Below the pieces are notes generated by a model that saw only the letters and a list, made by a program, of their open reading frames with translations, was not told where the DNA came from and did no database searches. A program made the translations under genes and the position numbers. Positions 1 to 64,000 of a DNA stretch of 64,000 nucleotides are shown piece by piece (position 1 is the first letter of the stretch; every line of letters starts with the position of its first letter). The stretch is from a virus (taxonomy: Duplodnaviria; Heunggongvirae; Uroviricota; Caudoviricetes), in the IMG/VR virus record IMGVR_UViG_3300049638_000482; one strand, 5' to 3'.

Positions 1-3000
1 GATGCAGCCCAGGGTATTGCATACAAGACCACCACGGGCTATGTGTATGACTACACCGTTGAGGAGGATGAGGCTAATCTCCCGAGCGGCGTCTCCGCAA
101 GGACCGCCAACCAGAAGGTCGAAGTGATTCTCACCGAGAACGATAACGGCACTATGTCGGTATCCCAGAACACAGGTACTGCTCAGAAGCCCGTTTCCTT
201 CGTCAATGATTATTCCGAGGATGACGCCATCGTTCAGATTGCCGGTAAGAAGAAGCTGACCTCTGATAGCCGTGATGTGGATCTCGCCGCCATCGCAGGC
301 AAGTTCCACTTCACCATTACAGCAGCAAATGGTGCTCCTCTGCCTGTGCAGACGGATGTCACGAACCAAGCTGATGGTACGGTTGACTTCGGTCAGATTG
401 TCTATAGCCAGGGTATTCTCAACGGTAGCAAGCAGAAGACATTCAGCTATCAGGTCAAGGAAACAGGCTCCGTGGCGGGTATTACCAACGACACTGAGAA
501 TGTTAAGGACTTCGCCATCACCATTAAGGATAATGGTAAGGGCGCTCTGACGGCGACACCTAATAAGGCTCTTGGTGACCTGTTCGAGTTCACCAACAAG
601 TACTCCTCGAATGGCGTTGAGATTCCGGTTAACATCACCAAGGTGCTCACCGGTAAGAACCTCAAGAAGGGCGAGTTCTCCTTCCAGGTTAAGAGCGCTG
701 ATGGCACTGTTCTGCTCAAGGGCACCAACGGTAAGGATGCCGCCAGCGGTGAGGCTTCGACCAGTGAGATTGGCAAGCTTCGCTTCCTGCATGAAGGCAC
801 CTACACCTACACCATCATCGAGCAGAACACGGGCGATCAGGGTATTACCTATGATACCTCCAAGTATCAGTTCACCGTCACGGTAACCAATGATGGTAAG
901 GGCAACCTGCAAGCCTCTGTCCACGGTCAGGATGGTGCAAGCGGAACGGCGGTTCATGCCACCTTCAGGAACACCTATAAGCCGGCTCCTGTGGACGTGG
1001 GTATTCGCTCCTCCAAGACGCTTGTCGGTCGTGATATGAAGGCTGGCGAGTTCAGCTTCATCCTTAAGAACGCCATCGGTGAGACCGTCAAGACGGTTAA
1101 TAATTCCGCCGCCAAGGATGGTCAGAGTTCAGTCCTCGATTTCGGCAAGCTCAGCTACGATTATGATAAAATCGCAGATGATGTCGAGATGGGTCTGGCC
1201 GTGCCGGATGCTCAAGGTGGCTACACCTACGGGTATTCAATCTCCGAGGATAAGACCAACCTGCCCGAGGGCATCACAGCTCCTAGTAAGGTTGCATTCT
1301 CTGTGAGGGTGTCTGATGCTGGCAACGGCAAGTTGCAGGCTGAGGTTATCTCCGACGGTAAGACGGTCAAGCAGGATAACGGCATCGCAACCGTTGAAGG
1401 CCTGACCAACCGCTACACTGAGAAGAACAACCCGCTTCAGGTGGAGCTCCGGGGTATTAAGACGCTCAGCGTTGGTGAGGGTCTGACCAAGCCGGATATC
1501 ACGGGTAAGTTCCACTTCACTATCAGCAGTTCTGATGGCGCTCCGATGCCTAGCAAGAAGGACGTCACCAACGATGCCAATGGTAATGTGGCGTTCGGTG
1601 ATGTCACCTTCAATAGCACCGACTTCAAGGAGGGCGAGACCAAGGTCTTCACTTACACTGTTAAGGAAACCGGCACCGTTCAGGGCGTAACCAACGATTC
1701 CGAGTCTACCAAGACGTTCACCGTCAAGGTAACAAGGAAGAACAACACGCTGGCAGCCGTTGTTGCGGATGGTGCTGATACCGCCTTCACCTTTGTCAAT
1801 AAGTACACCGCTTCGCCTGTCAAGGTTGAGATTGGTGGAGATAAGACGCTGTCTGGTCGTGACCAGAAGGCGGGCGAATTCTCCTTCAAGTTGCAAAACG
1901 AGAAGGGTGAGACAGTGGCTAATGCAACCACCTCTACCGATGCCAAGGACGGAAAAGTCGATGACTTCAAGTTCTCCGCGCAGACCTTCTCGAAGCCGGG
2001 TATTTACAATTATCTGGTGTCCGAGGAATCCGGCAACGGGAACGGCATCACCTACGATACCTCCGTGTATAAGGTGCAAGTCAAGGTGACGGATAACGGC
2101 AAGGGTGCTCTGCAGGCTGAGGTTTCCTATCCTGATGGTCAGCAGGGTATTCACTTCAAGAACACCTACAAGCCGGCTCCTGAGACCGTCGCAGTGGATA
2201 TTGCCAAGACCTTGAACGGTCGTGACATGACGAGCGACGAGTCCTTCAAGATTAAGGTCGCTTCTGAGGACGAGGCATCTGAGGGCACCCAGGCGAAGGA
2301 TAAGAAGGATGCGGGTGAGAAGGCCACCGCTAACAGTGCCACTCTCAAGTCCACCGAACTCCTGTTCCAGAACCTTAAGAATGGTGATAAGGGTGTTGCA
2401 CCTGATTATGTCACCTTCACCCAGCCGGGTATTTACCAGTATGCCATTTCTGAGGAGTCTGGTAATGCCGTCGGTGTCACCTATGACCAGTCCGTGTACC
2501 ACGTCAAGTACGTTGTTACGGATGATGGCAACGGTCACCTCGTGGTGCAGACCCTCTTCGGCAAGGATGAGGACAAGCTGTTCGAGTTCAAGCCCTCAGA
2601 GGGTATTCAGCGCCCTGTGGCGGAGTTCGTCAATACCTACACGCCGGATAAGCATAACTCCATCGACGTGGAGAAGTATGATGAGAAGTCCGGACCTCAG
2701 GACGGCGACCGCGACGACCCGAAGGACGCCCTGACAGTTAATGGTGACACCACCATCGACATCAAGGTGACCAACACTGGTGATGAGACTTTGACCGATC
2801 TCACCCTTAACGATGAGACGGTTGAAGGTTCAGGTACTCTGGGTGAGCTTAAGCTCCCTCAGACCACCTTGAAGCCCGGTGAATCCATTGTGGTGAGTGC
2901 CCAGCTCTCGGGTATTGGTCTCGGCGGTTCCCATAGGGATACGGCAACCGTAACTGGCAAGACCCCCGAGGGTAATATGGTAACTGACAAGGATGATTGG

Positions 3001-3186
3001 AACGGCAAGCGTTCCATCATTCCGACTGTGCAGTTGGCTCAGACAGGTGCGAATGCGTCTGTGCTGGGGCTGTTCGCTCTCGCAGTCGCTGGCGTGGGTA
3101 TTGCACTGGTTGAGTCCCGCAGGGTTAAGGCCAGGGCTTCGCGTGGTAAGCACACAGGTTCCTCCATTGGCAAGCACGCCATGTAA
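1..3186 (+). CDS. LAxTG-anchored surface adhesin (5' end cut by window edge) built of tandem pilin-like isopeptide/ester-bond-type beta-sandwich repeats
   Basis: Frame is open from nt 1; first in-window start is GTG at 43. Repeated ~110-aa units show K..AGEFSFxL, GxYxYxIxE and VxVTDNGKGxLQA patterns typical of SpaA/FctA-like Gram-positive adhesin domains. C-terminus is LAQTG + hydrophobic helix + basic tail, a sortase signal. A stem-loop/T-tract terminator follows. Confidence 0.8.
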   Translation, partial: DAAQGIAYKTTTGYVYDYTVEEDEANLPSGVSARTANQKVEVILTENDNGTMSVSQNTGTAQKPVSFVNDYSEDDAIVQIAGKKKLTSDSRDVDLAAIAGKFHFTITAANGAPLPVQTDVTNQADGTVDFGQIVYSQGILNGSKQKTFSYQVKETGSVAGITNDTENVKDFAITIKDNGKGALTATPNKALGDLFEFTNKYSSNGVEIPVNITKVLTGKNLKKGEFSFQVKSADGTVLLKGTNGKDAASGEASTSEIGKLRFLHEGTYTYTIIEQNTGDQGITYDTSKYQFTVTVTNDGKGNLQASVHGQDGASGTAVHATFRNTYKPAPVDVGIRSSKTLVGRDMKAGEFSFILKNAIGETVKTVNNSAAKDGQSSVLDFGKLSYDYDKIADDVEMGLAVPDAQGGYTYGYSISEDKTNLPEGITAPSKVAFSVRVSDAGNGKLQAEVISDGKTVKQDNGIATVEGLTNRYTEKNNPLQVELRGIKTLSVGEGLTKPDITGKFHFTISSSDGAPMPSKKDVTNDANGNVAFGDVTFNSTDFKEGETKVFTYTVKETGTVQGVTNDSESTKTFTVKVTRKNNTLAAVVADGADTAFTFVNKYTASPVKVEIGGDKTLSGRDQKAGEFSFKLQNEKGETVANATTSTDAKDGKVDDFKFSAQTFSKPGIYNYLVSEESGNGNGITYDTSVYKVQVKVTDNGKGALQAEVSYPDGQQGIHFKNTYKPAPETVAVDIAKTLNGRDMTSDESFKIKVASEDEASEGTQAKDKKDAGEKATANSATLKSTELLFQNLKNGDKGVAPDYVTFTQPGIYQYAISEESGNAVGVTYDQSVYHVKYVVTDDGNGHLVVQTLFGKDEDKLFEFKPSEGIQRPVAEFVNTYTPDKHNSIDVEKYDEKSGPQDGDRDDPKDALTVNGDTTIDIKVTNTGDETLTDLTLNDETVEGSGTLGELKLPQTTLKPGESIVVSAQLSGIGLGGSHRDTATVTGKTPEGNMVTDKDDWNGKRSIIPTVQLAQTGANASVLGLFALAVAGVGIALVESRRVKARASRGKHTGSSIGKHAM

Positions 3187-3220
3187 TGTGGATTGTTAGT
3201 CAAGGGTTAGCCTAGTCTGG

Positions 3221-3258
3221 AAAGGTCGCTTCGCTTTGGCGGGGCGACCTTTTTATTA
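3221..3258 (+). terminator. Rho-independent terminator after adhesin gene
   Basis: 9-bp inverted repeat aaaggtcgc / gcgaccttt with a 14-nt loop, followed by ttttatt. Confidence 0.6.
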
Positions 3259-3329
3259 TGATAGATGGTAGCGAACGCTTTTCTTGAAGAAAAGTTATTC
3301 GTCATTCTATTTTTTGAAGGGGTGCTATC

Positions 3330-5066: not shown

Positions 5067-5080
5067 AGGGGTGAGCGGTC

Positions 5081-6481: not shown

Positions 6482-6493
6482 CAGAGGTTTGAC

Positions 6494-9400
6494 ATGAAGC
6501 TATTTAGAAGTTTAGCAGCGGGTATTACCGCCATGGCGCTTATGGCTGTCCCAACCATGGGCGCTTACGCCGTTCAGGAGAGTGAGTCGCCCTCACCTTC
6601 GCCTACGCAGACCACTGAGTCGCCATCGCCTACGCCTACGCAGACCACTGAGTTGCCCAGCAATAGTGATAACAGCAAGACTACCACTGTCGAAGCCAAG
6701 GAGTTCACCGGTTTCTTCGACAAGGTTACCATGCAGCCAGGTAATTCCTACAAGGACGCACAGAATCACCGGTTCTTTGTCAAGGATGGTGAGTCTGCCC
6801 GCTTCTCAGTGAGCCAGGACGATTCGCAAGTCAACCAGCAGGGAGATTCCCAGAGCGATTCGCAAGGCGACCAGCAGGACGCTTCGCAAGGAGACCAGCC
6901 GGGTATTTCTAAGGACGATTCCAAGAGCTCTTCGCAAGGCGACCCCAAGAGCGCTTCGCAAGGTGATTCCAAGAGCACTTTGACCCCCCACATCGATAAG
7001 GTAATCAGCGGCGATAACGGCGTTCAGAGTTATCAGGCGGTTCTCCCCATCGATGAGGGTGGTACCCCAGTATACAGCTTGGATGCTGGCGAGTATAAGG
7101 CTTATCAGACGGAGGGAGAGACTTCCAGCTCTGTTGATGTTGCTTCCATCGCTAACATCCCGTCTTTCGAGGTCAAGACTGATGGCACGGCTCCTGAGGT
7201 TATGGATAATCAGTCTCAAGATGTGAAAGATGGCACTCAGAGCGTGGACAAGGGGTATTCCATCAGTGCCAGCCGCTTCGCCTTTAACGATGCTGACAGC
7301 GGTATTAATGCTAATAGTGTTACGTTGAAGGTCACTAAGGCGGGTTCCGAAGAGCAGTCTTGGGCTTTCGATAAGCCGTTTGATGAGGGCATGTATAGCG
7401 TCAGCGTTCAGGTGGCTGATAACGTTGGCAACCTGTCTCAGCCGTATACCTTCAATCTGAAGGTGTCTGATACCGCCTCAGCGTATAATGCTGTAACGTT
7501 GAAGAGTGGTGACGGCGTGTACTTCCAGAATGAAAAGCCTTCCAAGGATGCCCAGGTGTTTGTCAAGCCAGGCGCACATCTTGGAGTGAGCGTAGCCTCG
7601 GGGTATTCCATCGATTTTAACGGTCAGAATAACCTGACCGGCGACGCCGTGTTGAATATCCCTACCTCGGGTACTGATAGTTTGCCTGTCACTATTAAGA
7701 GTGATGACGGCTCCACCACGGCTCAGTTCGTTGTGTCGCTTGATGACGTTGCGCCTACCATTGATATGGATGCTGTGGAAAGCCAGCACTTCGGTGCCGA
7801 ATATGCTTTCCGTAGGGACGCCATCAAGGTCACGGACGGCAAGTCGGGTATTCACGCCAATGCGTCTGAGAGCGTTAAAATCAGTGTAGATGGTTCTGAG
7901 GTTTCCGGTGATACTGTAACACTCTCGCAGGGCGTTCATAAGGTTGATGTTTCCGCGAAGGATAATCTTGGTAACGCCTCCTCCATGTCCAAGACGGTGA
8001 CAGTCGTGGATAAGGCTTCATTTTCTAGCAAGGTTGAGCAGAGCGTTGATACATCCTACTACAAGGGTGCTGATGGCGTAATTTGGTACAACGGTCGGAC
8101 CCCTCTCAAGATTCAAGTTGCGGACGGGTATTCAATCTACAAGAAGCAGTCGGTTGACGGTCAGTTCGCCAAGGTCAGTGATAATATCGTGTCCGTCGCT
8201 GATGCCGATTCCGGTGAGGTCTACATTGGTTTTGATGCCCTTGACGGTCATCAGACGGAAGACACGCTTCATAAGCTGACTTTCAAGAAGGACGCCGACG
8301 CCCCGACAAGGGAAGGCGGTCAGCTGGGTATTAAAGACATTCTGGTGTCCGACTACACCGAGAAGAATGGTGTCTACAAGAACGGTGCAATGCTCAAGAA
8401 GCAGAGCGATTTGGGGTATTCTGATAAAAATGGCGTGGGTTTGAATTTTGACGCCTCTTACATCAGTACCAACAACAAGACCCAAATACCCCTCAAGGAC
8501 GCCGCAACTCAAGTTTTGCCGGAGGGCGATAATACCGTAAATATCGTGTTTGTGGATTACCTCGGAAATACCGCTAAGAGTACCTACAATCTGCGTGTTA
8601 GTTCTGATTCCAAGATGAGCGTTTCTGGCGTTTTTGACCAGAAAGACGGTTTTATTTCAACCGGTCAAGTACTTTATCGCAAGTCTGACGGCGCGTATCC
8701 TACGTTTACGTACACGGTGCAGAGTGATTCTGGACTTAAGAATGCCACTGCCAACACCGATGTCATTAAGGTGACAGCTGACGGTAATACGGTTCACGTG
8801 GAGTTTCTCAAGGACGGTTCCGCATCCTTTACGGTGACCAATAATTTCGGTGCTTCTGAGGTTGTTCAGGTTTGCGGTGACACAGTACAGGGAAGCGGAG
8901 AATGGTCTTCCGTGAAGACCGCTCAAGCTTTCTCCAGTGGTAACGTCTCCGTGGAAGGCAAGAACAGCTACGCGAATGGTGGTAAGCGTTGGTATGCCAA
9001 CAAGAAGTCGTTCGCCCAGGGTATTAACATCACTCTGACGGACTCCCCGTCTACGAATGCGCCCATCGATGTTAGTAGGACAGCTGAGCTGGGTATTTTC
9101 GTCAACGGTCAGCACGTCAAGGGTAAGTTGATTGACGGCGCCTCCAAGATGATTGGGCTGGCTGATGACGCAGAGCTGGCGGACGGCACAGACTACACGG
9201 TGTCCGTCGAGGTCTATGATATGCTCGGTCAGAAGACAAAGTTGAGTGACCTAGGTGGCTCCGTTTATCATATTGATTCCGAAGCTCCCAAGGCGGTTAA
9301 TGAAAATATCAAGAGCATCTTTGCCAATGAGAACGCTGCCATCGTGCAAGGTCAGACCGGGTATTACGCCGAGGCCAATAACGTCAGCTTGAAGAGTGCA

Positions 9401-14293: not shown

Positions 14294-14629
14294 ATGGTAA
14301 TGAATATTAGACGCTCATATGTCAGGGCTTGCGCTGGTCTTCCAGTGGTGCTTCTGCTTCTGGCAATTCTTGGCTTTTTGGCTAACATCAAGGTAAATAT
14401 GGGAGTCATGTCTATTGGCCTCATTGCGGTTGTGGTGATGTGGGTCAGCATCGACATGCTCACCCAGGGTATTAACGTCGAAGAGCGTAAGAAGAGTGCT
14501 CCAGCGCCTTTCTTCAACAAGGCTAAGGACTCAAAAGTCTCAGATTCGAATGATGATACCGTGGACGCTACGCAGGTTCTTCCTGAGAGCAGGCTTGATG
14601 ATTTTTCTTATGATGGAGATGTTGCCTAA
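14294..14629 (+). CDS. small membrane protein (2 TM helices)
   Basis: Two hydrophobic helices (LPVVLLLLAILGFLA; IGLIAVVVMWVSI). Start uncertain: TTG at 14264, or ATG at 14294 or 14300. Confidence 0.5.
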   Translation: MVMNIRRSYVRACAGLPVVLLLLAILGFLANIKVNMGVMSIGLIAVVVMWVSIDMLTQGINVEERKKSAPAPFFNKAKDSKVSDSNDDTVDATQVLPESRLDDFSYDGDVA

Positions 14630-15747
14630 TGAGTACTAGTACTGAGACTCGCCTCCTTCTGGTTGATGTTTCGCACATCGCATTCAATTTCTGGTCTGTG
14701 CAGCAGCAGATGACTTGGAACGTCAGTACTGATGTTATCAATTCTTGGTGTGACCAGTGGTACAATAGCACTGGAGACAGCAGCTATCTGAAACTTAAGT
14801 ACCCCGTTACCGCTGGTTCGACCGTTTTGGAGGATACACGAATCCCATCGGGTATTACTAAGAATATCTGGCGTTGGTCTAATTACGGCAAGAACGTGGT
14901 AATCCCGTGTTTCGATAGACCGTGTGGCTCCCGAAAGGCATTCCTTCAAGGCACCTTCCAAGTGAACTACAAAGAGGGTCGATCCCATAACTATGGCATC
15001 CGTAAGGGCTTGGAAAATGCAGAAAGAATTCTCCGTTTGGGTGGAGTTCCCGTGCTTGCGCAGGACAACTATGAGGCGGATGACCTTATTTCGGCGTGTG
15101 TGACCGCGTTCTACGATAAGTTCGATAAAATCGATGTTATCACTGGAGATTTCGACCTGCTTCCATTGGTTGATGATAAGGTGAGTGTCTTCCTCCGTTG
15201 CAGGAAAGACACCTACGCTGAGGAAGCTTACCTCAAGAAGAACAAATACGTTCAGATTACTCCTAACTCCTATGGTGACATCGGCTTCCATTGGACGAAG
15301 TGCAGCAAAGTCGAGTTGCCGTACAATTCCATTCTTCTTCAAAAGATGCTTCAAGGCGACGAATCCGATGCCATCCCGGGTATTATGAAGGAAACGTCCA
15401 CTGGACGGCTCATGCGCAAGTATCCTGATAAGAAGTACAATGAACTTGTCAACCAAATGGAGGCTGACGGCGTTGATTTTGGTAGTGTGTTCCGATATGA
15501 TACTCTGCCTACCTTCAGCAAGTCCAAGATGGAGGAAGTGCTGAGCGAATACCTTACAGAAGAGGACGTTGCCCATGCTCTGGGTCTGTGGCACGCCATG
15601 GATCTCAACAGTGCTTACTCCGTGGAGGACGTAGGCATTAACAACGGTTCCCTTGCCAGGGGTCGTTTCCAAGTGGCTGGTAATCCCGTCACGCCGGGCG
15701 ACGGTCTTGTTAGGGTCGCTCTGCAGTATGGAATTCACCTAGGTTAA
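14629..15747 (+). CDS. 5'-3' exonuclease / flap endonuclease (FEN, PIN-like + H3TH domain)
   Basis: Motifs LLVDVSHIAFNFW (N-terminal PIN), NYEADDLIS (cf. YEADDVIATLA of Pol I 5'-exo), ITGDFDLLPLVDD (cf. TGDKDLLQLV), IPGIMKETSTGRLM (H3TH). The minus-strand ORF 14626-15738 is its shadow. Confidence 0.75.
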   Translation: MSTSTETRLLLVDVSHIAFNFWSVQQQMTWNVSTDVINSWCDQWYNSTGDSSYLKLKYPVTAGSTVLEDTRIPSGITKNIWRWSNYGKNVVIPCFDRPCGSRKAFLQGTFQVNYKEGRSHNYGIRKGLENAERILRLGGVPVLAQDNYEADDLISACVTAFYDKFDKIDVITGDFDLLPLVDDKVSVFLRCRKDTYAEEAYLKKNKYVQITPNSYGDIGFHWTKCSKVELPYNSILLQKMLQGDESDAIPGIMKETSTGRLMRKYPDKKYNELVNQMEADGVDFGSVFRYDTLPTFSKSKMEEVLSEYLTEEDVAHALGLWHAMDLNSAYSVEDVGINNGSLARGRFQVAGNPVTPGDGLVRVALQYGIHLG

Positions 15748-16069: not shown

Positions 16070-16714
16070 ATGACCGGAACTGAGTTGTTTTTGACGATAT
16101 CATTGGTTGGTTTGGCATTTATCATTCCAGCCATTATTGGGAGCATCGGGCTGGATGTTCTTGATTTGGGGATGGGTCAAGGCGATTTGACCATGGTATT
16201 CGTTGGATTGGGTTCAGGCGCAGCTATTGGTGGTGCTTCAGCATTGATAGCGTTGCATACATTCCATACAAGCATGACGGCAGCATGGTTTACGTTTTTC
16301 CTCATCGCCGTCACATTAGCAGTCTTGGTGTTTATGGTCGGAATGAATTTGAAAAAGGCAAGTTCAGGAGCAGGCGACGCCATCACATTGGATTCTTTGA
16401 AAGGGCATGAGTACCCGCTTCGCCATTCAGTTAAAGAAGGATCGCTTGGAGAGCTTTACATAGATGATTGCAGTTCCGTCCCGTTTACAGTCTGGTTTCG
16501 CGCTAAAGAATCAGCGAGTGCTGGAGCCACCGTGCGGGTATTGGGCGCTTCTCAGGAATCCCCCAAGCAGGTCGAAGCTGAAATAGTACATGATACGTAC
16601 ACAGTCTTCATTCCAACAGTAAACACTGTAAAGCATACATCTTCGGACCAATGCCACCTCGGGTATTCGTCGCACGGCGATGTTAATGCATGCAAGACCA
16701 TCGAAAACAAGTAG
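16070..16714 (+). CDS. NfeD-like membrane protein (partner of SPFH/flotillin)
   Basis: Multi-TM N-terminus plus C-terminal soluble beta-rich domain. Sits immediately upstream of a flotillin gene, the canonical NfeD-SPFH operon arrangement. Confidence 0.5.
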   Translation: MTGTELFLTISLVGLAFIIPAIIGSIGLDVLDLGMGQGDLTMVFVGLGSGAAIGGASALIALHTFHTSMTAAWFTFFLIAVTLAVLVFMVGMNLKKASSGAGDAITLDSLKGHEYPLRHSVKEGSLGELYIDDCSSVPFTVWFRAKESASAGATVRVLGASQESPKQVEAEIVHDTYTVFIPTVNTVKHTSSDQCHLGYSSHGDVNACKTIENK

Positions 16715-16725
16715 AAAGAGTTATA

Positions 16726-18084
16726 ATGTTTGATACGATTATTCCCATTATCATTATTGTTGTCGCGGTAATAGCGGTAATCGCGTTTTTAGCAAGCCGC
16801 TATGTGGTCCCAGAAGCCGGTGAGGCTATTGTCATATCTGGTTCCGAAGTAAAGGAAGGCAGCAAGGGGTCAAGGAATAAGGTTCTCACCCAGCGTGGCG
16901 CGTTCGTCATTCCCATCATCCAGAGAATGGTGCGGATTTCATTGAAGTCCCGCCAGGTTACAGTTGATTGCGATGCCTACTCGCAGGATAAGATTACCTT
17001 GCACCTTCAGGTCGTTGCTACATACAAGGTCGGCTCCACCGCAGCTCAGATTTGCGAAGCTTCAGAGCGTTTCGCGGAAGTCAAGTCTGATGTTGTGAAC
17101 GGTCAGATTCAGAACATCATCGAAGGTGCCATGCGTGAAATCGTCGGTGAAATGACCGTTGTTGATTTGATTGGCGACCGTCAGAAGTTCCGCGATTCGC
17201 TTATGAATGTCATCAATGACTCGCTATCCAAGATGGGTCTTGATTTGGATAATCTGTCAATCAAGGAAATCAGCGATTCCAACGGATATATCAGGAACCT
17301 TGGTCGCCCGCAGGAGTCTGAGGTCGCCCGCGAGGCCGATGTAGCCGAGGCTGAGAACGCCCGCCAGTCCGCAGAGGCGAAGATAGCCGCTCAGCTTGCC
17401 ATCGAGCAGAAGAACAAGGACTTCAAGATTCAGAAGGCTCAGATTGACGAGGAAGTCGCCAAGCAGCAGGCCGTCGCTGATTCCGCTAAGACAATTGCTG
17501 ATGCTCAACAGCAGCAGCTCGTCCAGAAGGAAGAGCAGAAGGTCGAAGTTGCTACTGTCGAAGTCACCCGTGCTAAGCTGACAGGCGATGTGAATGCGAA
17601 GGCCGATGCTGACAAGTATCGCAGGACGGTCGAAGCCCAGGCTGATGCAGCCGCCCGAGCGGAAGTAGCAAAGGGTGAGGCAGAAGCCCGTAGGATTCAA
17701 GCCGAAGCCGATGCAGCCGCGAAGAAAGTCCAAGCGGAAGCCGATGCGGAAGTCACACGCCAGACCCAGCAAGCAGCGGCAGACGGGTATTTGGCGAACG
17801 AGACCGCCAAGGCACAGGCAATCAAGTTGAACGGTCAGGCTGAGGCTGAGGCTATCCAAGCCAAGGGTTCCGCAGAGGCAGAAGCCATGCGTAAGAAGGC
17901 AACAGCTTATGAGCTGTTGGTCAGGCCGCTCTCGCCAGTGAAATTATCAAGATTCTTCCTTCCATTGCCGAATATATTGCTAAGCCTTTGGCTTCGGCTA
18001 AGTTCACCGCCATTAACGCCGATGCGAATGACCAGATTACGTCTCTTACATCTAGTGTGGCTTCCAAGGTTCCAGAGACGATAA
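16726..18084 (+). CDS. SPFH/band-7 flotillin-like protein (FloT/YqiK family), N-terminal and coiled-coil part; frame breaks near 17913
   Basis: N-terminal TM helix, an SPFH domain, then a long E/A/Q-rich coiled coil (AEAENARQSAEAKIAAQLAIEQK...). After KKATAYE the predicted tail is out-of-frame junk. Confidence 0.75.
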   Translation: MFDTIIPIIIIVVAVIAVIAFLASRYVVPEAGEAIVISGSEVKEGSKGSRNKVLTQRGAFVIPIIQRMVRISLKSRQVTVDCDAYSQDKITLHLQVVATYKVGSTAAQICEASERFAEVKSDVVNGQIQNIIEGAMREIVGEMTVVDLIGDRQKFRDSLMNVINDSLSKMGLDLDNLSIKEISDSNGYIRNLGRPQESEVAREADVAEAENARQSAEAKIAAQLAIEQKNKDFKIQKAQIDEEVAKQQAVADSAKTIADAQQQQLVQKEEQKVEVATVEVTRAKLTGDVNAKADADKYRRTVEAQADAAARAEVAKGEAEARRIQAEADAAAKKVQAEADAEVTRQTQQAAADGYLANETAKAQAIKLNGQAEAEAIQAKGSAEAEAMRKKATAYELLVRPLSPVKLSRFFLPLPNILLSLWLRLSSPPLTPMRMTRLRLLHLVWLPRFQRR

Positions 18085-28002: not shown

Positions 28003-28017
28003 TTTTAGCTGGGTATC

Positions 28018-28051
28018 GAAGCCCCTGTTGCCGATAAGGCGCAGGGGCTTC
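28018..28051 (+). terminator. stem-loop (terminator or stability element) after the 27133 gene
   Basis: gaagcccctg / caggggcttc perfect 10-bp stem with a 14-nt loop; no T-tract. Confidence 0.4.
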
Positions 28052-28234
28052 CCTGTATCATGGGTTCGCCAAGGCGGGTATTCAGCCATGTTGACGGCAT
28101 CGAGGAAAGCATCGTGGGCGGGGTATTCAGTGACGAGGTAAGGGTCGAAGCCCGCGCCAAGGTAGGACCCCCGGGTATTCTTCTCCTTTGCAGGCATTAG
28201 TGGCTTTCTCGCATAATTATAAGCAGGTTGCATA

Positions 28235-32702: not shown

Positions 32703-32838
32703 ATCGAAGTCCTGTCAATGGTGCGGTTGCCCTCAGTACTTCATTTTTCCTGTGTAATACCCATCTCTTGATTGCCTGTTTGACGGCGAGCAGGCCGCTT
32801 GCGTGGCTTTGCTTATGTAGTCAAGATTAAGGAGCGTT

Positions 32839-45756: not shown

Positions 45757-45772
45757 GACAGGTGGGTATTTC

Positions 45773-55293: not shown

Positions 55294-55418
55294 AGATAAG
55301 GAGAAGAGGGGCTGAGGTTAAGCGGGTTAGGCGTAAGGCGAAGAAGCTGAGCGGTCTGGGCGCAAGGCGAAGAAGCTGAGCGGTCTAGGCGTAAGGAGCA
55401 GACAGGCGGGTATTACTC

Positions 55419-56724: not shown

Positions 56725-58839
56725 ATGCTCGAAAGACTGGAAGGCGGAGTTCCCGGAGTCAAGATTTGGTGGTGGGACCTGTGGCGTAAGGTTCTTATTG
56801 ATTACTATCATAGGTATAACTCTAGTGCCAGTATCGTTCGTGATAGTAATGCCTATGCCGATGTGCAGGCTCTGTATAGCGGCAGGGACAGAATCAGCGT
56901 ATTCTACACCCTCGACGAGTTCCCCGAGACAATGACGGTTCGCTATGCCGAAACCATCCGTAATTCCCTTGCTGAGGCTGTGTATGTGCGTATCTCATTC
57001 GCTACCTTGATGGAGAGGTATTCCACCCCTTGGAATAGTGCTAAAATCAAGTCCAAGATTCGTACTTGGAGCACCATTGCCGAGGAGGACGAGAGTACCG
57101 GCTCCGCCTACACCGCTGTCAAGGAGTCAGATCAGCAAGCGCGTATTTCTCGTCGAGAAGCTTCTCTGTATTACATGGCTAACGCAGAGCAGCGCAGAGG
57201 TAGGAGAAGCTTTAGGTTCCGTGTACTTATGATTGTCTCTGGCGTGCGTGGACCTGAGTTTGATAAGGGTCTCACTAAAGTGGAGAAGGTCTGCTCGGAC
57301 TTGGGTATTCGCGCGACCCGCGTCACAGAGAATCTTGACCGCTATATCGCATATTTTTCGCCTTTCCGTTTGGCTAGTGATTCGTCGCTCGCCAAGGGAA
57401 TCGGTAGCACCGTTTTGACGGACGAGATTCTTGCCAGGTTCAATAACTATACTCAGGGTCAGGTAGGAAGAGGACCGATCTACTGGGGCACGGATATCTA
57501 CTCGGGGTACCCAGTATGGAACGAGATTAAGAAGAAGGACACCGACGCCGAGAACCTTCTGGTTGTTGCAGAGACGGGCGGTGGTAAATCATTCTTCGTT
57601 AAGACCATCCTCTTGGGTATTCTCGCTGACAAGCGTTTCGACGCCACCATCATGGATATTGAAGGCTTCGAGTACACTCCTTTGGTGGATATCGTTGGTA
57701 AGAGCGATAAGTGCGTGCAGCTCAATATGGCAGAAGGCAAGGGTGCATACTTCGACCCTGTTGCAGTGTATCAGACCGGTGACCCAATCCTTGATGAGGA
57801 TATGTACACCACCAGCCGCTCCTATACCATCGCCGTTCTCAAGACTCTGATGGGTGATTATTCCAAGAATAACCAGTGGGTGGACACCATCATCAACGAT
57901 GCCGTGTCTAAGACATACCTCAAGGCGGGTGTGACGGAAGACCCGTCTACATGGGCGAATAGTCATAACCTGACTCTGAAAGATGTCTACAAGACCATTC
58001 TTGAACTGTACAAGTCTAATAGCATTGAAGGCGTAAATAAGCTGTATGCTAATAATGCTGGCTATCTTGATGCCAAGGATAGGGTGGTTGCCCAGCTGAG
58101 CCGCTACTTCGATGAGAATGGTACACGAGCGAACGTGTTCAGCCATCCAGTGGGTATTGACACCATCAAGGACGCCCGCGTGGTCATCTGTTCCTTTGGC
58201 CTTGCAGGAAAGACCGAGAAGACCATCGACCCTATTCAGATGGCGTTGACCCAGTTGTTTGCAGCTAATATTGCTGGTCTGCGAAGCCGGTTCGGTCAGC
58301 TCAGAGGTCAGTATAGCCTCAAGTTGTGGGAAGAGTTCCAGCGCTGGTCTAGCTTGCCTGATTCTGAGAAGACCATCGTGACAGCGTTGACCGGTGGTCG
58401 TAAGCTGGGTGATGTTAATATCATCATCACCAACAAGGTCAGCGACCTGTTGAATGGCGATCGCTTCGGTATTTTCGAGACGGCAACCTCCTTCGCCATC
58501 GGCTCAATCCAGGATAGCAAGGTTCGTCACGAGCTGGCTAAGAGACTCAATGTGGAGCGACTTATTCCTGATTTGGATTCCCTTGTAATTGACTCCAGCA
58601 ACAAAGTCAATAACGAGAGATATCGCTACGCTTTCGTGGTTCACCCCGCCAAGGGTATTGAGACGGTTACGAAGATGGATTTGCCGCCGTCCATTACTGA
58701 AAGCCCCCTCTTTAGGACGGGTATTAAGAGGAAGGATGAGACAGCTGATACAGTTAGCAGTCTCGATAAAGCCCTTAGTGAAATCCAGAAGATGGGTATT
58801 GATCTCGGCGGTACTGGTCTGCTTGACATGGACGAATAA
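56725..58839 (+). CDS. VirB4/TrsE/ConE/TcpF-like T4SS ATPase
   Basis: Walker A LLVVAETGGGKSFF. DEAW-like Walker B region YSLKLWEEFQRW. Size ~700 aa and T4SS context. Confidence 0.65.
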   Translation: MLERLEGGVPGVKIWWWDLWRKVLIDYYHRYNSSASIVRDSNAYADVQALYSGRDRISVFYTLDEFPETMTVRYAETIRNSLAEAVYVRISFATLMERYSTPWNSAKIKSKIRTWSTIAEEDESTGSAYTAVKESDQQARISRREASLYYMANAEQRRGRRSFRFRVLMIVSGVRGPEFDKGLTKVEKVCSDLGIRATRVTENLDRYIAYFSPFRLASDSSLAKGIGSTVLTDEILARFNNYTQGQVGRGPIYWGTDIYSGYPVWNEIKKKDTDAENLLVVAETGGGKSFFVKTILLGILADKRFDATIMDIEGFEYTPLVDIVGKSDKCVQLNMAEGKGAYFDPVAVYQTGDPILDEDMYTTSRSYTIAVLKTLMGDYSKNNQWVDTIINDAVSKTYLKAGVTEDPSTWANSHNLTLKDVYKTILELYKSNSIEGVNKLYANNAGYLDAKDRVVAQLSRYFDENGTRANVFSHPVGIDTIKDARVVICSFGLAGKTEKTIDPIQMALTQLFAANIAGLRSRFGQLRGQYSLKLWEEFQRWSSLPDSEKTIVTALTGGRKLGDVNIIITNKVSDLLNGDRFGIFETATSFAIGSIQDSKVRHELAKRLNVERLIPDLDSLVIDSSNKVNNERYRYAFVVHPAKGIETVTKMDLPPSITESPLFRTGIKRKDETADTVSSLDKALSEIQKMGIDLGGTGLLDMDE

Positions 58840-59943: not shown

Positions 59944-60031
59944 AAGGCCGAAGGGCGAGGGGCGAGACGGCGCTCTGGAGGTTTCAAAGTTAGCTTGTAG
60001 GAAGCCCCCGGGTATTACAGAGGAGGCCGCT

Positions 60032-60478: not shown

Positions 60479-60500
60479 GGCGTAAGGGCGGGTATTTAAA

Positions 60501-63008
60501 ATGTCAGCTTTGGATGATTTTAAAGCACAGAGAGCGTTTAAGAAGAACCCTCCAACGGTTATGCCGGGTATGGAGAGTCCAGCAGGCGGAAGCAATATGG
60601 CGTTTCCAGGAGCTAATTCCCCGTTTGGTCAGTCGGCTCCGGGTGCTCCGCCCAGCCCGTTTGGGCCTCAAGGACCAATGAATACGCCTAGCCCCATGGG
60701 AAGTCCGTTTGGCAGCCCGATGGGAAGTCCATTCGGAAGTCCGATGGGCAGTCCAATGGGAAGTCCGATGGGCAGTCCTTTCAGCAATCCTATGGGTAGC
60801 CCTTTTGGTAACACTGCGCCTAACCCCATCGCGCAGCCGGGTATTCCTCAGCAGGGTGCTGACGTGTCGGAGCAATACAAGAAGGACGCTGTCCCAGCAT
60901 TGCTCGCCGTGTTCCGTGGAGTGACGGGTGCTTTTAGGAATACCTCTAAGTACTCGAATGCTAAGACGGGCTTCCATATCATGGTGGCTGGCGCAGTCGA
61001 AATCGTCATAGGTGTGGTGTTGTTCGTGGCTAATCTGTTCCACGGCGGGTATTTCAATGGCCATGCCGCAGTGACGCTGGGCGGTGTCATTACCAGTATG
61101 GCGGGGCTGGGTATTTGGTATGCGTTCAATAGCAGTGGTGCAGCCGAGCGAGCCAAATACGTGGAAGAGCAGCAGAAGCAGTCGCAAGCCCAAGCCCCGC
61201 AAATGCCAGCTCAGCCCGCCTTCACTCCCCCTGAGACACCTGATTTTTTCGCTAACGCCTCATCAAGCGAGGATGAGGACGATGATGATTGGAACTTCTC
61301 GCTATCAGACGATGAGGACGAAGATGGAGAATCTGCGCCCGTTGAGACCAAAGACCCTGACGAGGTGTTGGAGACTATGCCTACGCTCGATAAGGGTATG
61401 TTTACTCGTCAGTATCTGTGGGAGGCTTACAAGCAGGTTCTTCCTCAGGTCAATCCCAACTTTGGTGACATGAACGAGATTGACGAGGACTCCAGCGAGT
61501 TTGAGGAGTGGGGCACACGAATCACCGAGGCAGCCACAGTAGCAGGTCTCAACATTGAGGACGTGTCCCTCGAGTCCATGTATGAGAACCTTTCCATCTA
61601 TCAGCTTAAGGTGACCCGCCAGTCCGGTGCCTCCTCCAAAGAGAAGGTCATGGTTAGCGAAGTGCTCAACTCCTACAAGATGGATGACATGGGTCGCAGC
61701 ATCCCTGAGCGTTCGGGCGCATTTAGCACCTACAGGGCAGGCCGTGGGTATTTATTCATCACCATTTTCAAGGCCAGCAAATATATGGTGTCTGTTGGTG
61801 ACATCTATAATAAGTGCAGCGACTGGGTGCTTGATACCGATGTCAAGGTGCCATGGGCTTACGGCGTGTCTCAAGACGGGGAAATCTGGAAGGGAGACCT
61901 TCTGGACCTTGATAGCATGATTGTGGCTGGTATGCCTCGCTTCGGTAAGTCTTGGAACATGTTCAGCATCATGCTTCAGATGTGCATGTGGATGTCCCCG
62001 AAGGATTTGAACTTCGAGTGCTACGATGTCAAGGAGGGTATTTCCGAGTATTCGACCTTCACATTGCCGCACCTTAAGCGCTTCGAGTCCGACCCTAAGC
62101 GCGTGGTTGAGCGAATTAAGTATATTGTCAACGTGGAGGGCGCTCGCAGGAAGAAGATTCTCGCTCAATATGGAGTAAAGAAGATTCAAGACCTCCCCGA
62201 GGAAGCTCATCTACCTTACTTGTATATTGTCATCGATGAGATGGTTGGTTTGAATAATGCCATTATCTCGTGGGGCGGCAAAGATGAGCTTAATGTCTAT
62301 AGGGATTGCTTGAACAACCTTATCTCGCAGCTCCCTGCCACGGGTATTCGACCGCTGATGGTTCCTCACCGCATCGTTGATAACATCATTCCTAAGACGG
62401 CTTCCAGCTTGGTGGCTTGCCGCATGACGTTGGGTGCCGATACTGATGATGCTTTGAAGGGCGCTATTGATGAGACTTCAGCCGCCTTCGGGTATTCCCT
62501 GCCGAATAAGGGTGATGCGGCGGCTAAGATTGTCACGATGAATAGCGGCAAGCCGTTCTATTGCCATAGTGCTGTGGTGACCACCAGCGACGAGGATAAT
62601 AAGAAGTTGACGAAGTTCGTTCAGTCGGTGTGGAATCGCATTGAGCCTGACGAGAAGGGCTGGTGGGACACCCACAAGCCAGTGAACGCCGCCGCAAAAG
62701 AGAATGAAGTCGCTTCGGAGGGCGCGGAAGGCGATTCCGAAGGAGATGGAACTTTCGAGGTTTCAGGGGTCTCGGTGAAGAAGGATTCCGAGCCGAAGAA
62801 GGAATACAAGCCTGTTTCCAATTGGGTGCCTTCTAATGAGGAGACGTTCCGCCCGAAGCCAGGAGAGGGTATTACCACCGAGAAAGGTGGTTCCACCGCT
62901 ACTCGAGAGAACACCCGATGGGCTGACAACGATAGCGAGGGTAGTACTCAGAGTGCTAAGGACTCTAAAGAAGATGAGGACCCTTACGACTTCTGGGATA
63001 GCCTTTAG
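60501..63008 (+). CDS. FtsK/SpoIIIE-family coupling ATPase (TcpA/Orf21-like) with low-complexity MGSP-repeat N-terminus and 2 TM helices
   Basis: Walker A VAGMPRFGKSW, Walker B YLYIVIDEM. N-terminal (MGSPFGSP)n. TM helices FHIMVAGAVEIVIGVVLFVANLF and VTLGGVITSMAGLGIWYAF. Acidic linker. Confidence 0.65.
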   Translation: MSALDDFKAQRAFKKNPPTVMPGMESPAGGSNMAFPGANSPFGQSAPGAPPSPFGPQGPMNTPSPMGSPFGSPMGSPFGSPMGSPMGSPMGSPFSNPMGSPFGNTAPNPIAQPGIPQQGADVSEQYKKDAVPALLAVFRGVTGAFRNTSKYSNAKTGFHIMVAGAVEIVIGVVLFVANLFHGGYFNGHAAVTLGGVITSMAGLGIWYAFNSSGAAERAKYVEEQQKQSQAQAPQMPAQPAFTPPETPDFFANASSSEDEDDDDWNFSLSDDEDEDGESAPVETKDPDEVLETMPTLDKGMFTRQYLWEAYKQVLPQVNPNFGDMNEIDEDSSEFEEWGTRITEAATVAGLNIEDVSLESMYENLSIYQLKVTRQSGASSKEKVMVSEVLNSYKMDDMGRSIPERSGAFSTYRAGRGYLFITIFKASKYMVSVGDIYNKCSDWVLDTDVKVPWAYGVSQDGEIWKGDLLDLDSMIVAGMPRFGKSWNMFSIMLQMCMWMSPKDLNFECYDVKEGISEYSTFTLPHLKRFESDPKRVVERIKYIVNVEGARRKKILAQYGVKKIQDLPEEAHLPYLYIVIDEMVGLNNAIISWGGKDELNVYRDCLNNLISQLPATGIRPLMVPHRIVDNIIPKTASSLVACRMTLGADTDDALKGAIDETSAAFGYSLPNKGDAAAKIVTMNSGKPFYCHSAVVTTSDEDNKKLTKFVQSVWNRIEPDEKGWWDTHKPVNAAAKENEVASEGAEGDSEGDGTFEVSGVSVKKDSEPKKEYKPVSNWVPSNEETFRPKPGEGITTEKGGSTATRENTRWADNDSEGSTQSAKDSKEDEDPYDFWDSL
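60696..60810 (+). repeat. 12-15-bp coding tandem repeats (MGSP(F)GSP)n
   Basis: atgggaagtccgttcggcagcccg-like units at the 5' end of the FtsK-like gene. Confidence 0.6.
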
Positions 63009-63093
63009 TTGATGAAATGAGATAAAAGTTGGAAGCCCATCGAGCTGCGGTTCGGTGGGCTTCCTGCTATAATAGATGGTAAGGAGTGTTGTT

Positions 63094-64000
63094 ATGCGCG
63101 TTGATGTTCAGTTGGATGACAGTGAGTTGGCTTTGTTGGCAGGTTATAACCGTTCCACCACCATGGGTATTAAGAAGCCGGGCGAATTGCAGCGGGAGCT
63201 GCTCTCGGATATGGAGAACGTTGAGGAGAAGCGTGAGGTGAAAGCAGTCCCCGAGGAGCAGGGTAAGGACGAGGATACTAAGGAAGCCGCGAGCGCTTTG
63301 GAGGACGAAGCAGAAGAAGTTAAGAGCGCTCCAGTGAGGGTCAGGTCTGACTTCCTTTCCATGTTGTCTGCAATGGCTCAGCCTAATACCCACGAGGATA
63401 AAGACTCGGAGGACTCCGAGGTCGAGGCAGAGGACATGGGTATTCTCCCCGAAGACAACGAGGACGAAGACGAAGAAGATGGGAGTGTCCTCCCCGAAGA
63501 TGAGGACGAAGAAGATGGGAGTGTCCTCCCCGAAGATGAGGACGAAGAAGATGGGAGTGTCCTCCCCGAAGATGAGGACGAAGAAGATGGGAGTGTCCTC
63601 CCCGAAGATGAGGACGAAGAAGATGGGAGCACGCTTCCTGACGATGATGACGAGTATGATGAGGATGATGGAATCCTTCCTGCGGATGAGGACGAGTATG
63701 ATGAGGATGATGGAATCCTTCCTGCGGATGACGAGGATGCTGAGGGTGAGAGTGTAGCTTCTGAGGAGCCCACCGCGGGTATTACTGAGCAGCAAGAAGA
63801 CGAGTATTCTTCAGAGTTGTCAGAAGATGATGACGATGAGGAGTATTCTTCAGAGCTTCCAGAAGACGAGGACGACGAAGAAGACCCCTCAGAGTTTCCA
63901 GCTGACGAGGACGATGAGGAAGATTCCAGCGTTCTGCCTGACGATGATGAAGTTGATTATAGCGTTCTCCCAGATGATGACAGCGAAGAAGATTCCAGCG
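63094..64000 (+). CDS. acidic tandem-repeat protein (3'-truncated by window edge), paralogue of 23076-24620
   Basis: ATG at 63094 with RBS aaggag. Not in the ORF track because no stop occurs before the window end. Encodes EDEDEEDGSVLP x4, DEYDEDDGILPAD x2 and YSSELxEDDDE repeats. The 63067-63795 minus-strand ORF is its shadow. Confidence 0.65.
   Translation, partial: MRVDVQLDDSELALLAGYNRSTTMGIKKPGELQRELLSDMENVEEKREVKAVPEEQGKDEDTKEAASALEDEAEEVKSAPVRVRSDFLSMLSAMAQPNTHEDKDSEDSEVEAEDMGILPEDNEDEDEEDGSVLPEDEDEEDGSVLPEDEDEEDGSVLPEDEDEEDGSVLPEDEDEEDGSTLPDDDDEYDEDDGILPADEDEYDEDDGILPADDEDAEGESVASEEPTAGITEQQEDEYSSELSEDDDDEEYSSELPEDEDDEEDPSEFPADEDDEEDSSVLPDDDEVDYSVLPDDDSEEDSS
63451..63730 (+). repeat. 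36-bp (about 4.5 copies) and 45-bp (2 copies) coding tandem repeats
   Basis: gaagatgaggacgaagaagatgggagtgtcctcccc repeated head-to-tail from 63496, then gacgagtatgatgaggatgatggaatccttcctgcggat x2. Confidence 0.75.

Follow-up and report, generated by a model that had tools for sequence, protein, structure and literature searches.

The stretch of DNA analyzed here, a 64-kb window filed as viral (IMG/VR record IMGVR_UViG_3300049638_000482), carries the heptamer GGGTATT at roughly even intervals along its sense strand, where the word constitutes a polar, element-specific, DNA-level signal under selection. By gene content and order the window is assigned to the pXO16 family of giant conjugative elements, in which related words recur with the same spacing. 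pXO16 itself is a 350-kb conjugative plasmid of Bacillus thuringiensis sv. israelensis that has been described as ‘phage-like’ and has co-oriented coding sequences (CDS) (PMC6199540, PMC9673590). Among the explanations weighed below, the most likely is that copies of the word serve as scattered priming sites for a DnaG/T7-type primase of the element itself, a tentative reading with a probability of about 0.35.

The word and its spacing

The window is 50% GC and its GC skew is positive throughout. Exact mapping places 189 copies of GGGTATT on the plus strand (starts 12 to 63777) and 3 on the minus strand, against 4.0, 6.5 and 24 copies expected on the plus strand under Markov models of order 1, 2 and 3, respectively; the excess over the order-1 expectation is 47-fold. 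It is by far the commonest 7-mer of the window, the next unrelated one having 45 copies. Every one-mismatch variant is at background (0-10 copies each), which argues that all seven bases are required. The reverse complement AATACCC occurs 3 times versus about 2.4 expected by a Markov model, so the reverse orientation is neither enriched nor avoided. The copies are located as follows.

12..63783, plus (sense) strand: GGGTATT array, 189 exact copies, mean spacing 339 bp
Start positions, plus strand: 12, 411, 477, 840, 999, 1231, 1452, 1998, 2145, 2427, 2601, 2910, 3096, 3765, 4305, 4501, 5161, 5173, 5776, 5860, 6145, 6262, 6520, 6901, 7253, 7601, 7846, 8126, 8326, 8414, 9019, 9091, 9359, 9724, 10034, 10438, 10540, 10747, 11263, 11437, 11579, 11686, 12390, 12433, 12769, 12839, 13282, 13826, 13951, 14211, 14467, 14850, 15378, 15993, 16536, 16661, 17785, 18095, 18481, 18704, 19012, 19108, 19754, 20051, 20095, 20480, 20975, 21103, 21599, 21858, 22078, 22351, 22698, 23086, 23181, 23519, 23664, 23835, 23964, 24126, 24348, 24394, 24530, 24899, 25580, 25802, 25964, 26179, 26215, 26350, 26485, 27330, 28076, 28121, 28173, 28368, 28387, 28927, 28969, 29017, 29464, 29716, 29820, 30292, 30667, 31515, 31632, 32019, 32377, 32901, 33745, 34495, 35325, 35685, 36045, 36423, 36769, 37389, 37534, 38053, 38342, 39633, 39821, 40545, 40718, 40932, 41889, 42164, 42614, 42744, 42921, 43041, 43232, 43470, 43672, 43845, 44703, 44875, 44966, 45008, 45764, 46244, 46771, 47699, 47920, 48781, 49048, 49441, 49727, 50036, 50344, 50459, 50608, 51020, 51606, 51955, 52238, 52462, 52699, 53666, 53883, 54378, 55408, 55718, 55927, 56232, 56716, 57303, 57615, 58152, 58653, 58719, 58794, 59298, 60010, 60037, 60301, 60490, 60839, 61047, 61109, 61746, 62036, 62342, 62490, 62867, 63165, 63438, 63777
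8485..8491, minus strand: reverse copy (AATACCC on the plus strand)
32756..32762, minus strand: reverse copy, in the spacer before the 3039-aa gene
63385..63391, minus strand: reverse copy

The 188 gaps between copies have a mean of 339 bp and a median of 285 bp, with a minimum of 12 and a maximum of 1291 bp. Their coefficient of variation (CV) is 0.707, compared with 0.994±0.071 in 20,000 random uniform placements, none of which was as low (P<5e-5). The gaps also depart from the exponential distribution in a Kolmogorov-Smirnov (KS) comparison (D=0.149, Monte-Carlo P<5e-5), have a gamma shape of 1.92, and give an index of dispersion of 0.55 in 1-kb bins (P=0.0015). Both tails are depleted, with 11 gaps below 50 bp versus 25.3±4.4 expected (P=1.5e-4), two above 1.1 kb versus 7.1±2.0 (P=0.006), and a maximum that falls short of the 1958±409 bp seen under uniform placement (P=0.007). 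The initial annotation had called the spacing more regular than random, counting about 9 of some 190 gaps below 50 bp where about 25 were expected and 2-3 above 1.1 kb where about 7 were expected, with the longest running from 16661 to 17785 and from 38342 to 39633. Exact positions bear this out in the CV, in the index of dispersion and in the KS comparison with the exponential that it had proposed as a check, and they return the same two longest gaps.

38342..39639, plus strand: longest gap (1291 bp), inside the 3039-aa gene
16661..17791, plus strand: second-longest gap (1124 bp), inside the SPFH/Band-7 gene 16690-18084
35325..36775, plus strand: five copies spaced 360, 360, 378 and 346 bp apart, at equivalent positions of tandem domain repeats in the 3039-aa gene

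A harder null, in which random subsets of compatible codon contexts are drawn, gives a CV of 0.925±0.058, compared with 0.765 for the coding copies (P<2e-4). Domain periodicity, as in the five copies above, adds local regularity and does not explain the overall evenness, because the CV is still 0.737 once the four giant repeat-domain genes are excluded (P=5e-5). Tandem protein domains were accordingly ruled out as the source of the evenness, which is found outside the giant genes and also in regions of small genes in pXO16. Helical phasing was looked for as well, and the copies show none at 10-11 bp.

Imprint on genes and proteins

The word is written into genes in every reading frame, 107 copies being read as xxG-GGT-ATT, 47 as GGG-TAT-T and 21 as xGG-GTA-TTx, while 14 do not lie fully within a gene. 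Synonymous contexts able to encode GGGTATT are filled in 75% of cases. For instance, 92% of Gly-Tyr-(T..) contexts carry the word, though GGG is the rarest glycine codon and accounts for 6% of Gly codons elsewhere. Relative to composition, the dipeptide Gly-Ile is 1.85 times and Gly-Tyr 1.41 times as frequent as expected, and Ile-Gly and Tyr-Gly are depleted. The skewed filling of codon contexts and the dipeptide excess together indicate that GGGTATT shapes protein sequence. A repeated peptide or a tandem repeat was rejected as the origin of the word, since all frames and the spacers are used and a tandem-repeat finder lists no array built of GGGTATT.

In spacers the word occurs once per 195 bp and in genes once per 350 bp. 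Spacers are free of coding cost yet only 1.8 times denser, which fits selection on spacing rather than on copy number. Four copies stand at the position of a ribosome-binding site, where about one is expected, and there GGG doubles as the Shine-Dalgarno core (aggtGGGTATTtcATG). A Shine-Dalgarno role was nevertheless discarded, as no more than these four copies are so placed and elsewhere the genes show the usual AGGAG sites.

45764..45770, plus strand: GGGTATT copy that overlaps the position of a ribosome-binding site, 9 nt upstream of the ATG at 45773; likewise the copies at 55408, 56716 and 60490
28076..28179, plus strand: cluster of three GGGTATT copies at distances of 45 and 52 bp within the 232-bp spacer 28003-28234; two of them occur as the decamer GGGTATTCAG

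The spacer 28003-28234 lies upstream of a gene for a small lysine-rich repeat protein and the gene for a DnaX-like ATPase. It holds the only tight non-coding cluster of the word (three copies within 104 bp) and might be a special site. Around copies in the window, a C-rich patch is seen at -12 to -1, where CCA, CCC and GCC reach 2-3 times expectation on an otherwise G-rich strand, and A or C is preferred at +1 and +2. The patch was considered as a hairpin partner and rejected, because it is missing around the pXO16 word; for the same reason it is probably not part of the signal.

Conservation among close relatives

Relatives were found with the DnaX-like ATPase encoded at 29099..30403 as marker. 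Homologs of 86%, 60% and 49% identity lie on contigs of up to 252 kb, in which GGGTATT is again the top 7-mer and one-stranded (35:0, 28:0 and 35:2). In alignments with three relatives, copies of the word in the window are kept at the same column in 78% of cases in L004 (34.5% for all 7-mers, P=5e-6), 83% in L043 (32%, P=3e-11) and 49% in L042 (13%, P=3e-8). Retention of word sites is thus 2-4 times better than that of other 7-mers, and these alignments indicate purifying selection on GGGTATT sites. Losses are few, and several have a gain in the relative at a distance of 100-400 bp; on these small numbers such pairs are taken as turnover that preserves coverage.

At positions 1-9400 the 252-kb relatives L006/L007 have a type I-E cas operon together with an IS605/TnpB element and genes for a resolvase and an Mrr nuclease. 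GGGTATT is already found in the cas genes about every 500 bp on the plus strand, and two minus-strand genes of 60% GC (3489-4961) lack it in either direction. The cas region looks like acquired DNA that is gradually taking on the word.

The spacing law in pXO16 and other relatives

The whole sequence of pXO16, a circle of 349.6 kb, was analyzed (L104-L110). GGGGTA occurs 657 times on its plus strand and 5 times on its minus strand, or once per 532 bp, with the consensus W-GGGGTA-K. The gaps have a CV of 0.712 (null 0.997±0.038, z=-7.5) and a gamma shape of 1.91, and the CV lies between 0.63 and 0.79 in every 50-kb block. The largest gap is 2071 bp versus 3760±652 expected, and gaps below 80 bp number 19 versus 90 expected, with an index of dispersion of 0.36-0.43. 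Between 12 and 27 copies fall in each 10-kb bin. The strand preference never switches around the circle, the GC skew stays positive all the way, and all CDS (455/455) are on the plus strand.

When scaled to their means, the gaps of the window and those of pXO16 follow distributions that a KS comparison does not tell apart (D=0.059, P=0.66). In both, gaps below a tenth of the mean occur at about 0.1-0.2 of the expected number, and none exceeds four times the mean. The other low- and mid-GC relatives are under-dispersed as well (16/16, CV 0.59-0.89). Even coverage is a reproducible spacing law (gamma shape ~1.9) that is the same in elements with different words and densities. The initial annotation took the under-dispersion to suggest selection for even coverage, and this view has good support from the shared scaled gap law, the purifying selection and a spacer density only 1.8 times that of genes. 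The words vary across the family around a core, GGGTA, common to all motif-bearing relatives:

Window: H-GGGTA-TT
L010: GGGTA-T
L051: (G)GGGTA-[CT]-T
L016: (G)GGGTA-T-[CT]
pXO16: W-G-GGGTA-K

A 4.4-kb stretch of pXO16 (162886-167324; L107 12886-17324) has no plus-strand open reading frame (ORF) longer than 69 aa and no annotated gene, and carries the word at normal density (8 copies), which argues that translation is irrelevant. This stretch directly follows the stand-alone Toprim gene and matches nothing in Rfam; candidates for its nature are a non-coding RNA, an origin region and a decayed gene. Elsewhere on the plus strand of pXO16, GACCC occurs 132 times versus about 50 expected and GGGTC 11 times versus about 115 expected, a deficit that is probably inflated by GGGGTA copies feeding the Markov expectation.

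Five high-GC relatives (L018, L020, L035, L052 and L076; 61-62% GC) have a C-rich sense strand with a GC skew of about -0.19, the opposite of low-GC relatives. In them CAGCA(G) shows a strong strand bias (e.g. 94:3) irrespective of reading frame, with avoidance of its complement. As the only frame-independent skewed word there, it was considered as the equivalent of GGGTATT and rejected, being clustered (CV 1.1-1.4). CAGCAG is the EcoP15I site, which in T7 likewise lies all on one strand (0:36).

L014, together with proteins P0140-P0230, represents a relative of ~170-180 kb and 39% GC with the word GGGGTA[T]. Dozens of assemblies contain it, on contigs of 165-187 kb; a single helicase variant is present on 42 contigs, and one of the contigs is IMG/VR UViG_7000000673_000020, filed as viral. 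This L014-type family appears to be common but unrecognized as pXO16-like.

Gene content and identity of the element

All chosen genes of the window (41/41) are on the plus strand. In addition to the genes below, the window encodes an isopeptide pilin-like protein, a Ser/Thr kinase followed by a 2384-aa Ig-repeat protein, and a YdjM hydrolase. The 5'-3' exonuclease and the DnaX-like ATPase are the only replication-fork enzymes recognized in it.

14629..15747, plus strand: 5'-3' exonuclease of the primer-removal type (PF02739, E=4e-13)
16690-18084, plus strand: SPFH/Band-7 gene
29099..30403, plus strand: DnaX/clamp-loader-like AAA ATPase, counterpart of the pXO16 ATPase 327133-328428
32839-41958, plus strand: gene for a giant protein of 3039 aa
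45773..51421, plus strand: conserved giant protein of 1882 aa in the conjugation locus (the pXO16 ‘tip’ region), 30% identical over 55% of its length to pXO16 333216-338720
56725..58839, plus strand: HerA/VirB4-like ATPase (DUF87)
60501..63008, plus strand: FtsK/SpoIIIE-family ATPase, candidate coupling protein, in which no FtsK gamma domain was detected

The order DnaX-like ATPase, YdjM hydrolase, giant protein, VirB4-like and FtsK-like ATPase is that of pXO16 at 327-349 kb and then 0.8-3.2 kb, and the order of the kinase/Ig-repeat region matches pXO16 as well. Among 72,556 plasmids, the 1882-aa protein matches only 10 records, all of pXO16. Searching with an alignment of this protein brought up 28 contigs from IMG/VR and 62 metagenome contigs of 100-236 kb, and a search of GTDB genomes returned only one remote match, in Clostridia. 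Megablast of the window against phages and plasmids gave nothing, and Rfam and tRNA scans of it were empty. The ‘Inocle’ elements were considered as the family and rejected, as their gene orientation switches at the origin and terminus and their GC content is 24-32%.

The 3039-aa gene has a 1714-aa ORF antisense to it (36655-41799, minus strand), which probably arises from the gene's repetitive, stop-poor codon composition rather than representing a real gene. At 63469-63629, inside the last gene, a perfect 36-bp tandem repeat (100% identity, 4.5 copies) encodes an acidic stretch, and its perfect identity suggests a very recent expansion. Further in-frame acidic repeats are found at 23890-24382, 54457-54556 and 63634-63920.

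Specificity and transfer

The word is private to the element, as judged on one co-resident plasmid. In pBtic360, a 360-kb plasmid of the same B. thuringiensis strain as pXO16, GGGGTA is at chance (6:0 per 50 kb), compared with about 94 per 50 kb in pXO16.

pXO16 transfers single-stranded DNA through a novel type IV-like system, and no relaxase or origin of transfer (oriT) has been identified for it (PMC6199540, PMC9673590). It nevertheless mobilizes oriT-less plasmids and chromosomal DNA, and the rolling-circle plasmids that it mobilizes need an intact single-strand origin (sso) in the right orientation (PMC6199540, PMC9673590). One of its passengers, pUB110, is retromobilized faster than pE194 (PMC6199540). 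pUB110 contains no GGGGTA and not even GGGTA on either strand, and pE194 has two. As pUB110 lacks the word and is mobilized, the word is not needed in cis for export by the pXO16 machinery, and its role as a transfer signal was rejected; the step that needs a signal in cis would then be priming rather than export. The repeated word is not mentioned in two reviews of pXO16 (PMC6199540, PMC9673590), and no description of it or of a like phenomenon was found in the searchable literature, which did not cover the 2015 pXO16 sequence paper.

A proposed dispersed priming signal

As a priming signal, the word would be read by the primase as a start site on the single-stranded form of the sense strand. 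GTA would be the initiation triplet, with its T in the center and its 3' A left uncopied; a pppACCC-type primer would be copied from the GGG on the 5' side; and the bases on the 3' side (TT in the window) would be read by the zinc-ribbon domain of the primase, which may be why the core is constant and the flanks drift across relatives. The sense strand would be copied discontinuously and hence need a start site every few hundred bases, either as the lagging-strand template of a one-directional replication that moves with transcription, or as the strand that enters the recipient 5'-first, or both. Long gaps would be selected against, and very close copies would be redundant and lost, giving the observed gap law. 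Repeated priming of this kind would be one version of the machine restarting every few hundred bases, a processive reader that must be re-loaded, which the initial annotation had envisaged. Because a 7-base word is rare by chance, the whole replicon, proteins included, would have to be recoded to reach one per ~340 bases; a primase reading seven bases meets its site by chance only every 16 kb, so that a T7-like density needs roughly 47-fold enrichment. The single polarity round the pXO16 circle, with no strand switch, fits a single discontinuously copied template strand, and the arrangement, with its positive GC skew, would agree with forks that travel along with transcription.

The genes of pXO16 are consistent with priming of this type. 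Its replisome is T7-like, with a family-A polymerase that has a 3'-5' exonuclease and with a DnaB-like helicase (WP_001162832.1), and the plasmid also encodes a stand-alone DnaG-type zinc ribbon (Zn_ribbon_DnaG, 190 aa, WP_000365721.1), a stand-alone Toprim protein (Toprim_2, 261 aa, WP_000389279.1), a ligase, gyrase, and helicases of the UvrD and SNF2 types. A gyrB-gyrA-DnaB-zinc-ribbon module recurs in relatives carrying GGGGTA or GGGTATC, and a zinc ribbon adjoins DnaB in L114 and L115 too. Judged by sequence, the core GGGTA contains a G-T-A triplet with a central pyrimidine, as a primase site would, in the window and every motif-bearing relative. T7 primes best at 5'-GGGTC, where the product is pppACCC and the 3' base, left uncopied, is read by the zinc finger (PMC11109968). 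DnaG of Firmicutes, including Bacillus anthracis, starts at d(CTA) or d(TTA), and its zinc domain is able to act on the catalytic domain in trans (PMC2978363). T7 DNA has a major priming site about every 250 nt per strand, compared with 1 per 340 to 1 per 530 for the words of the window and pXO16.

Several points weigh against priming. The analogy with T7 is chemical and not statistical, since T7 priming sites are without strand bias (161:159) and only weakly even (CV 0.92). The known primases of the DnaG/T7 type read 3-5 bases, and a strict need for seven would be unprecedented in the class. Primase genes are seen in pXO16 and other low-GC relatives and not in the 64-kb window or its close relatives, and searches based on DnaB for the replication module of the GGGTATT clade returned only other clades. 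High-GC relatives (57% and 62% GC) keep the conjugation locus and have no comparable word. All native genes in ~100 loci are co-oriented, and for this reason a signal on the strand is inseparable from one on the transcript or non-template strand. Minus-strand genes were tried as a separator and gave no answer, as the ~100 loci contain only two such genes, both foreign and of 60% GC, with no word in either direction. At about one chance in three, a link from the word to priming is still the favored reading.

An extension of the priming hypothesis is a private priming code, in which a giant conjugative lineage has a primase zinc ribbon that demands a 6-7-base word (GGGTATT, GGGGTA[G/T], GGGTAT and others) and has had its whole sense strand, coding sequence included, rewritten so that the word stands every 300-500 bases. 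This extension is speculative and somewhat less probable than priming as such. If true, synthesis of the complementary strand would be self-sufficient and restricted to the element's own DNA, both in vegetative replication and after single-strand entry, and the word would be a dispersed single-strand origin that replaces oriT-linked or sso-type signals.

Other explanations

The next candidate, though an unlikely one, is a Chi-like role, in which a helicase-nuclease, either host AddAB/RecBCD or an element-encoded enzyme, stops degrading DNA when it meets the word from one side, and even coverage limits the loss. The exact short-word specificity, the absolute polarity on a G-rich sense strand and the even coverage are all as a protection model predicts, and pXO16 has a UvrD-type helicase and several nucleases. 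Against this, the word is not host-wide, the co-resident plasmid being at chance. The B. subtilis Chi sequence AGCGG is not usefully skewed in pXO16 or the window and occurs there 83 times versus 76 expected and 62 versus 62, respectively, with the proviso that the Chi of the window's host may differ. Variation of the word around a common core among relatives points to a reader encoded by the element, and the pXO16 annotation, in which most CDS are hypothetical, names no AddA/AddB/RecB-like two-domain enzyme; its UvrD-like protein is without a Pfam nuclease domain. The pXO16 circle also shows no strand switch, unlike Chi on replicons copied in both directions. The protection window put forward as a mechanism in the initial annotation is thereby weakened. 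Doubtful to a slightly greater degree, and equally so, are a signal in transcription or RNA and a target for a strand-specific enzyme. In the former, the word would be a -10-like element that causes sigma-dependent pausing or forms minimal promoters, or a GGGUAUU site for an RNA-binding protein. It always lies on the sense (non-template) strand along transcription, the co-orientation of native genes keeps strand and transcript inseparable, and GGGTAT, the sigma-B/sigma-F -10 consensus, is contained in it. Yet the pXO16 word is GGGGTA[G/T] rather than GGGTAT; a -35-like GTTT at the right distance (12-17 bp upstream) accompanies 8 sites versus 6.6±2.5 in controls; 189 internal promoters or pauses in 64 kb are without known rationale; and word density is the same in the ORF-less 4.4 kb of pXO16 and higher in spacers. 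Promoters of the sigma-B type were rejected outright, there being no -35 element and no information at positions -45 to -15. In the latter, an element enzyme would nick the strand or modify a base at the word, as a self-label, an entry point for strand-displacement synthesis or clamp loading, or a nuclease barrier. Phage T5 provides a parallel in its one-strand nicks. Exact 7-bp specificity that tolerates no mismatch is typical of such enzymes, the word is confined to one strand, pXO16 encodes HNH-ParB, GIY-YIG and other nucleases, and a clamp-loader-like ATPase is conserved beside the transfer genes; on the other side, no cognate enzyme has been identified, no known system of the kind imposes even spacing or recodes proteins this far, and sequence alone cannot reveal nicks or modifications.

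Less likely again is a guide or loading signal for a translocase, similar to the FtsK orienting polar sequences (KOPS), the SpoIIIE recognition sequences (SRS) or uptake sequences, which would direct the FtsK-family conjugation ATPase. Haemophilus, in its uptake signal sequence (USS), offers the other known example of words that are very dense and rather evenly spaced. FtsK/SpoIIIE-family ATPases are indeed encoded in the conjugation locus of both the window and pXO16, and for pXO16 no oriT or relaxase is known (PMC9673590). Against such a guide, pXO16 mobilizes pUB110, which has neither GGGGTA nor GGGTA, and retromobilizes it faster than pE194, which has two copies (PMC6199540). The Pfam searches also speak against it, in which FtsK-like proteins of the window and pXO16 gave no Ftsk_gamma match at E<=5, as do the high-GC relatives, which keep the locus without an evenly spaced word. 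Neither pXO16 nor the window is enriched in the SRS word GAGAAGGG, a guide would not need a copy every 340 bp, and the skew switch that KOPS/SRS-type words show at the terminus (dif) is found nowhere on the pXO16 circle (657:5). That the word has no function at all, and is a by-product of base composition, codon usage, a repeated peptide or tandem domains, can be given almost no weight. Tandem domains do carry some copies at matching positions (360, 360, 378 and 346 bp apart), and one frame, xxG-GGT-ATT, is preferred. Nevertheless, 189 copies are seen where Markov models give 4-24, every frame and the spacers are occupied, the rarest Gly codon fills 92% of Gly-Tyr-T.. contexts, under-dispersion extends outside the repeat genes, the sites are conserved beyond other 7-mers, and the property recurs with different words in distant relatives; the tests on the window and the family have already refuted this reading. 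What probability remains belongs to something not yet imagined.

Significance

Chi, KOPS and uptake sequences are among the few cases in which a DNA-handling machine visibly shapes a whole genome. The word described here belongs with these polar, over-represented short words read by DNA machines and is family-wide in pXO16-like elements. It differs from every described member in being private to a mobile element, very dense, strongly imprinted on coding sequence and reproducibly even in its spacing. The word bears on an open problem, namely how pXO16 transfers single-stranded DNA 350 kb in length, and chromosomal DNA as well, without a known oriT, relaxase or single-strand origin, and it offers a concrete hypothesis that is testable in a tractable host, B. 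thuringiensis. It also provides a simple sequence signature for recognizing pXO16-like elements, a family that recurs under a viral label in assemblies from metagenomes and IMG/VR.

Comparison with known systems

Among the closest known systems, pXO16 is the counterpart of the element as a whole rather than of the motif. The window shares with it the conjugation (‘tip’) locus, a Ser/Thr kinase and giant Ig-repeat protein, isopeptide pilin-like proteins, genes that all lie on one strand, and a GGGTA-core word with the same spacing law. The two differ in protein sequence (~30% identity), in GC content (~50% in the window element, 33% in pXO16), in word and density (GGGTATT, 1 per 339 bp; W-GGGGTA-K, 1 per 532 bp), and in size, the close relatives of the window lying on contigs of ~235-250 kb compared with 350 kb for pXO16. 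Contigs of the GGGTATT clade include OAWN01000012.1 (236 kb), ENA k141_426109 (234 kb) and Ga0557493_034053 (252 kb).

Among words read by DNA machines, the sites of T7 gp4 (GGGTC/TGGTC/GTGTC) and Firmicute DnaG (CTA/TTA) resemble GGGTATT as short words on a single-stranded template with a central T and an uncopied 3' base. The GGG on its 5' side, moreover, would give an ACCC-type primer, usable sites in T7 have a similar density (1 per 250, compared with 1 per 340 in the window), and relatives of the window encode a T7-like replisome with a DnaG-type zinc ribbon. In contrast to the 3-5 bases of those sites, the word of the window has seven strict bases; it is 47-fold enriched, on one strand and even, whereas T7 sites are without strand bias or clear evenness. 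Like Chi, the word is exact, polar, short and G-rich, lies on the sense or leading-type strand and follows a logic of coverage. It is element-specific, however, and about ten times denser than Chi words of 7-8 bases, Chi in Escherichia coli occurring about once per 5 kb. KOPS/SRS and the TraB repeats of Streptomyces are likewise strand-polar words with an FtsK-family ATPase encoded alongside, but the word of the window family is 10-30 times denser and is not required in cis for transfer, and the ATPase encoded with it shows no gamma reader domain. DNA uptake sequences, that is, the USS of Haemophilus and the DUS of Neisseria, come close in their comparable enrichment, reported tendency to even spacing and protein imprint; they occupy both strands of a host chromosome, whereas the word of the window is 189:3 and private to a plasmid family.

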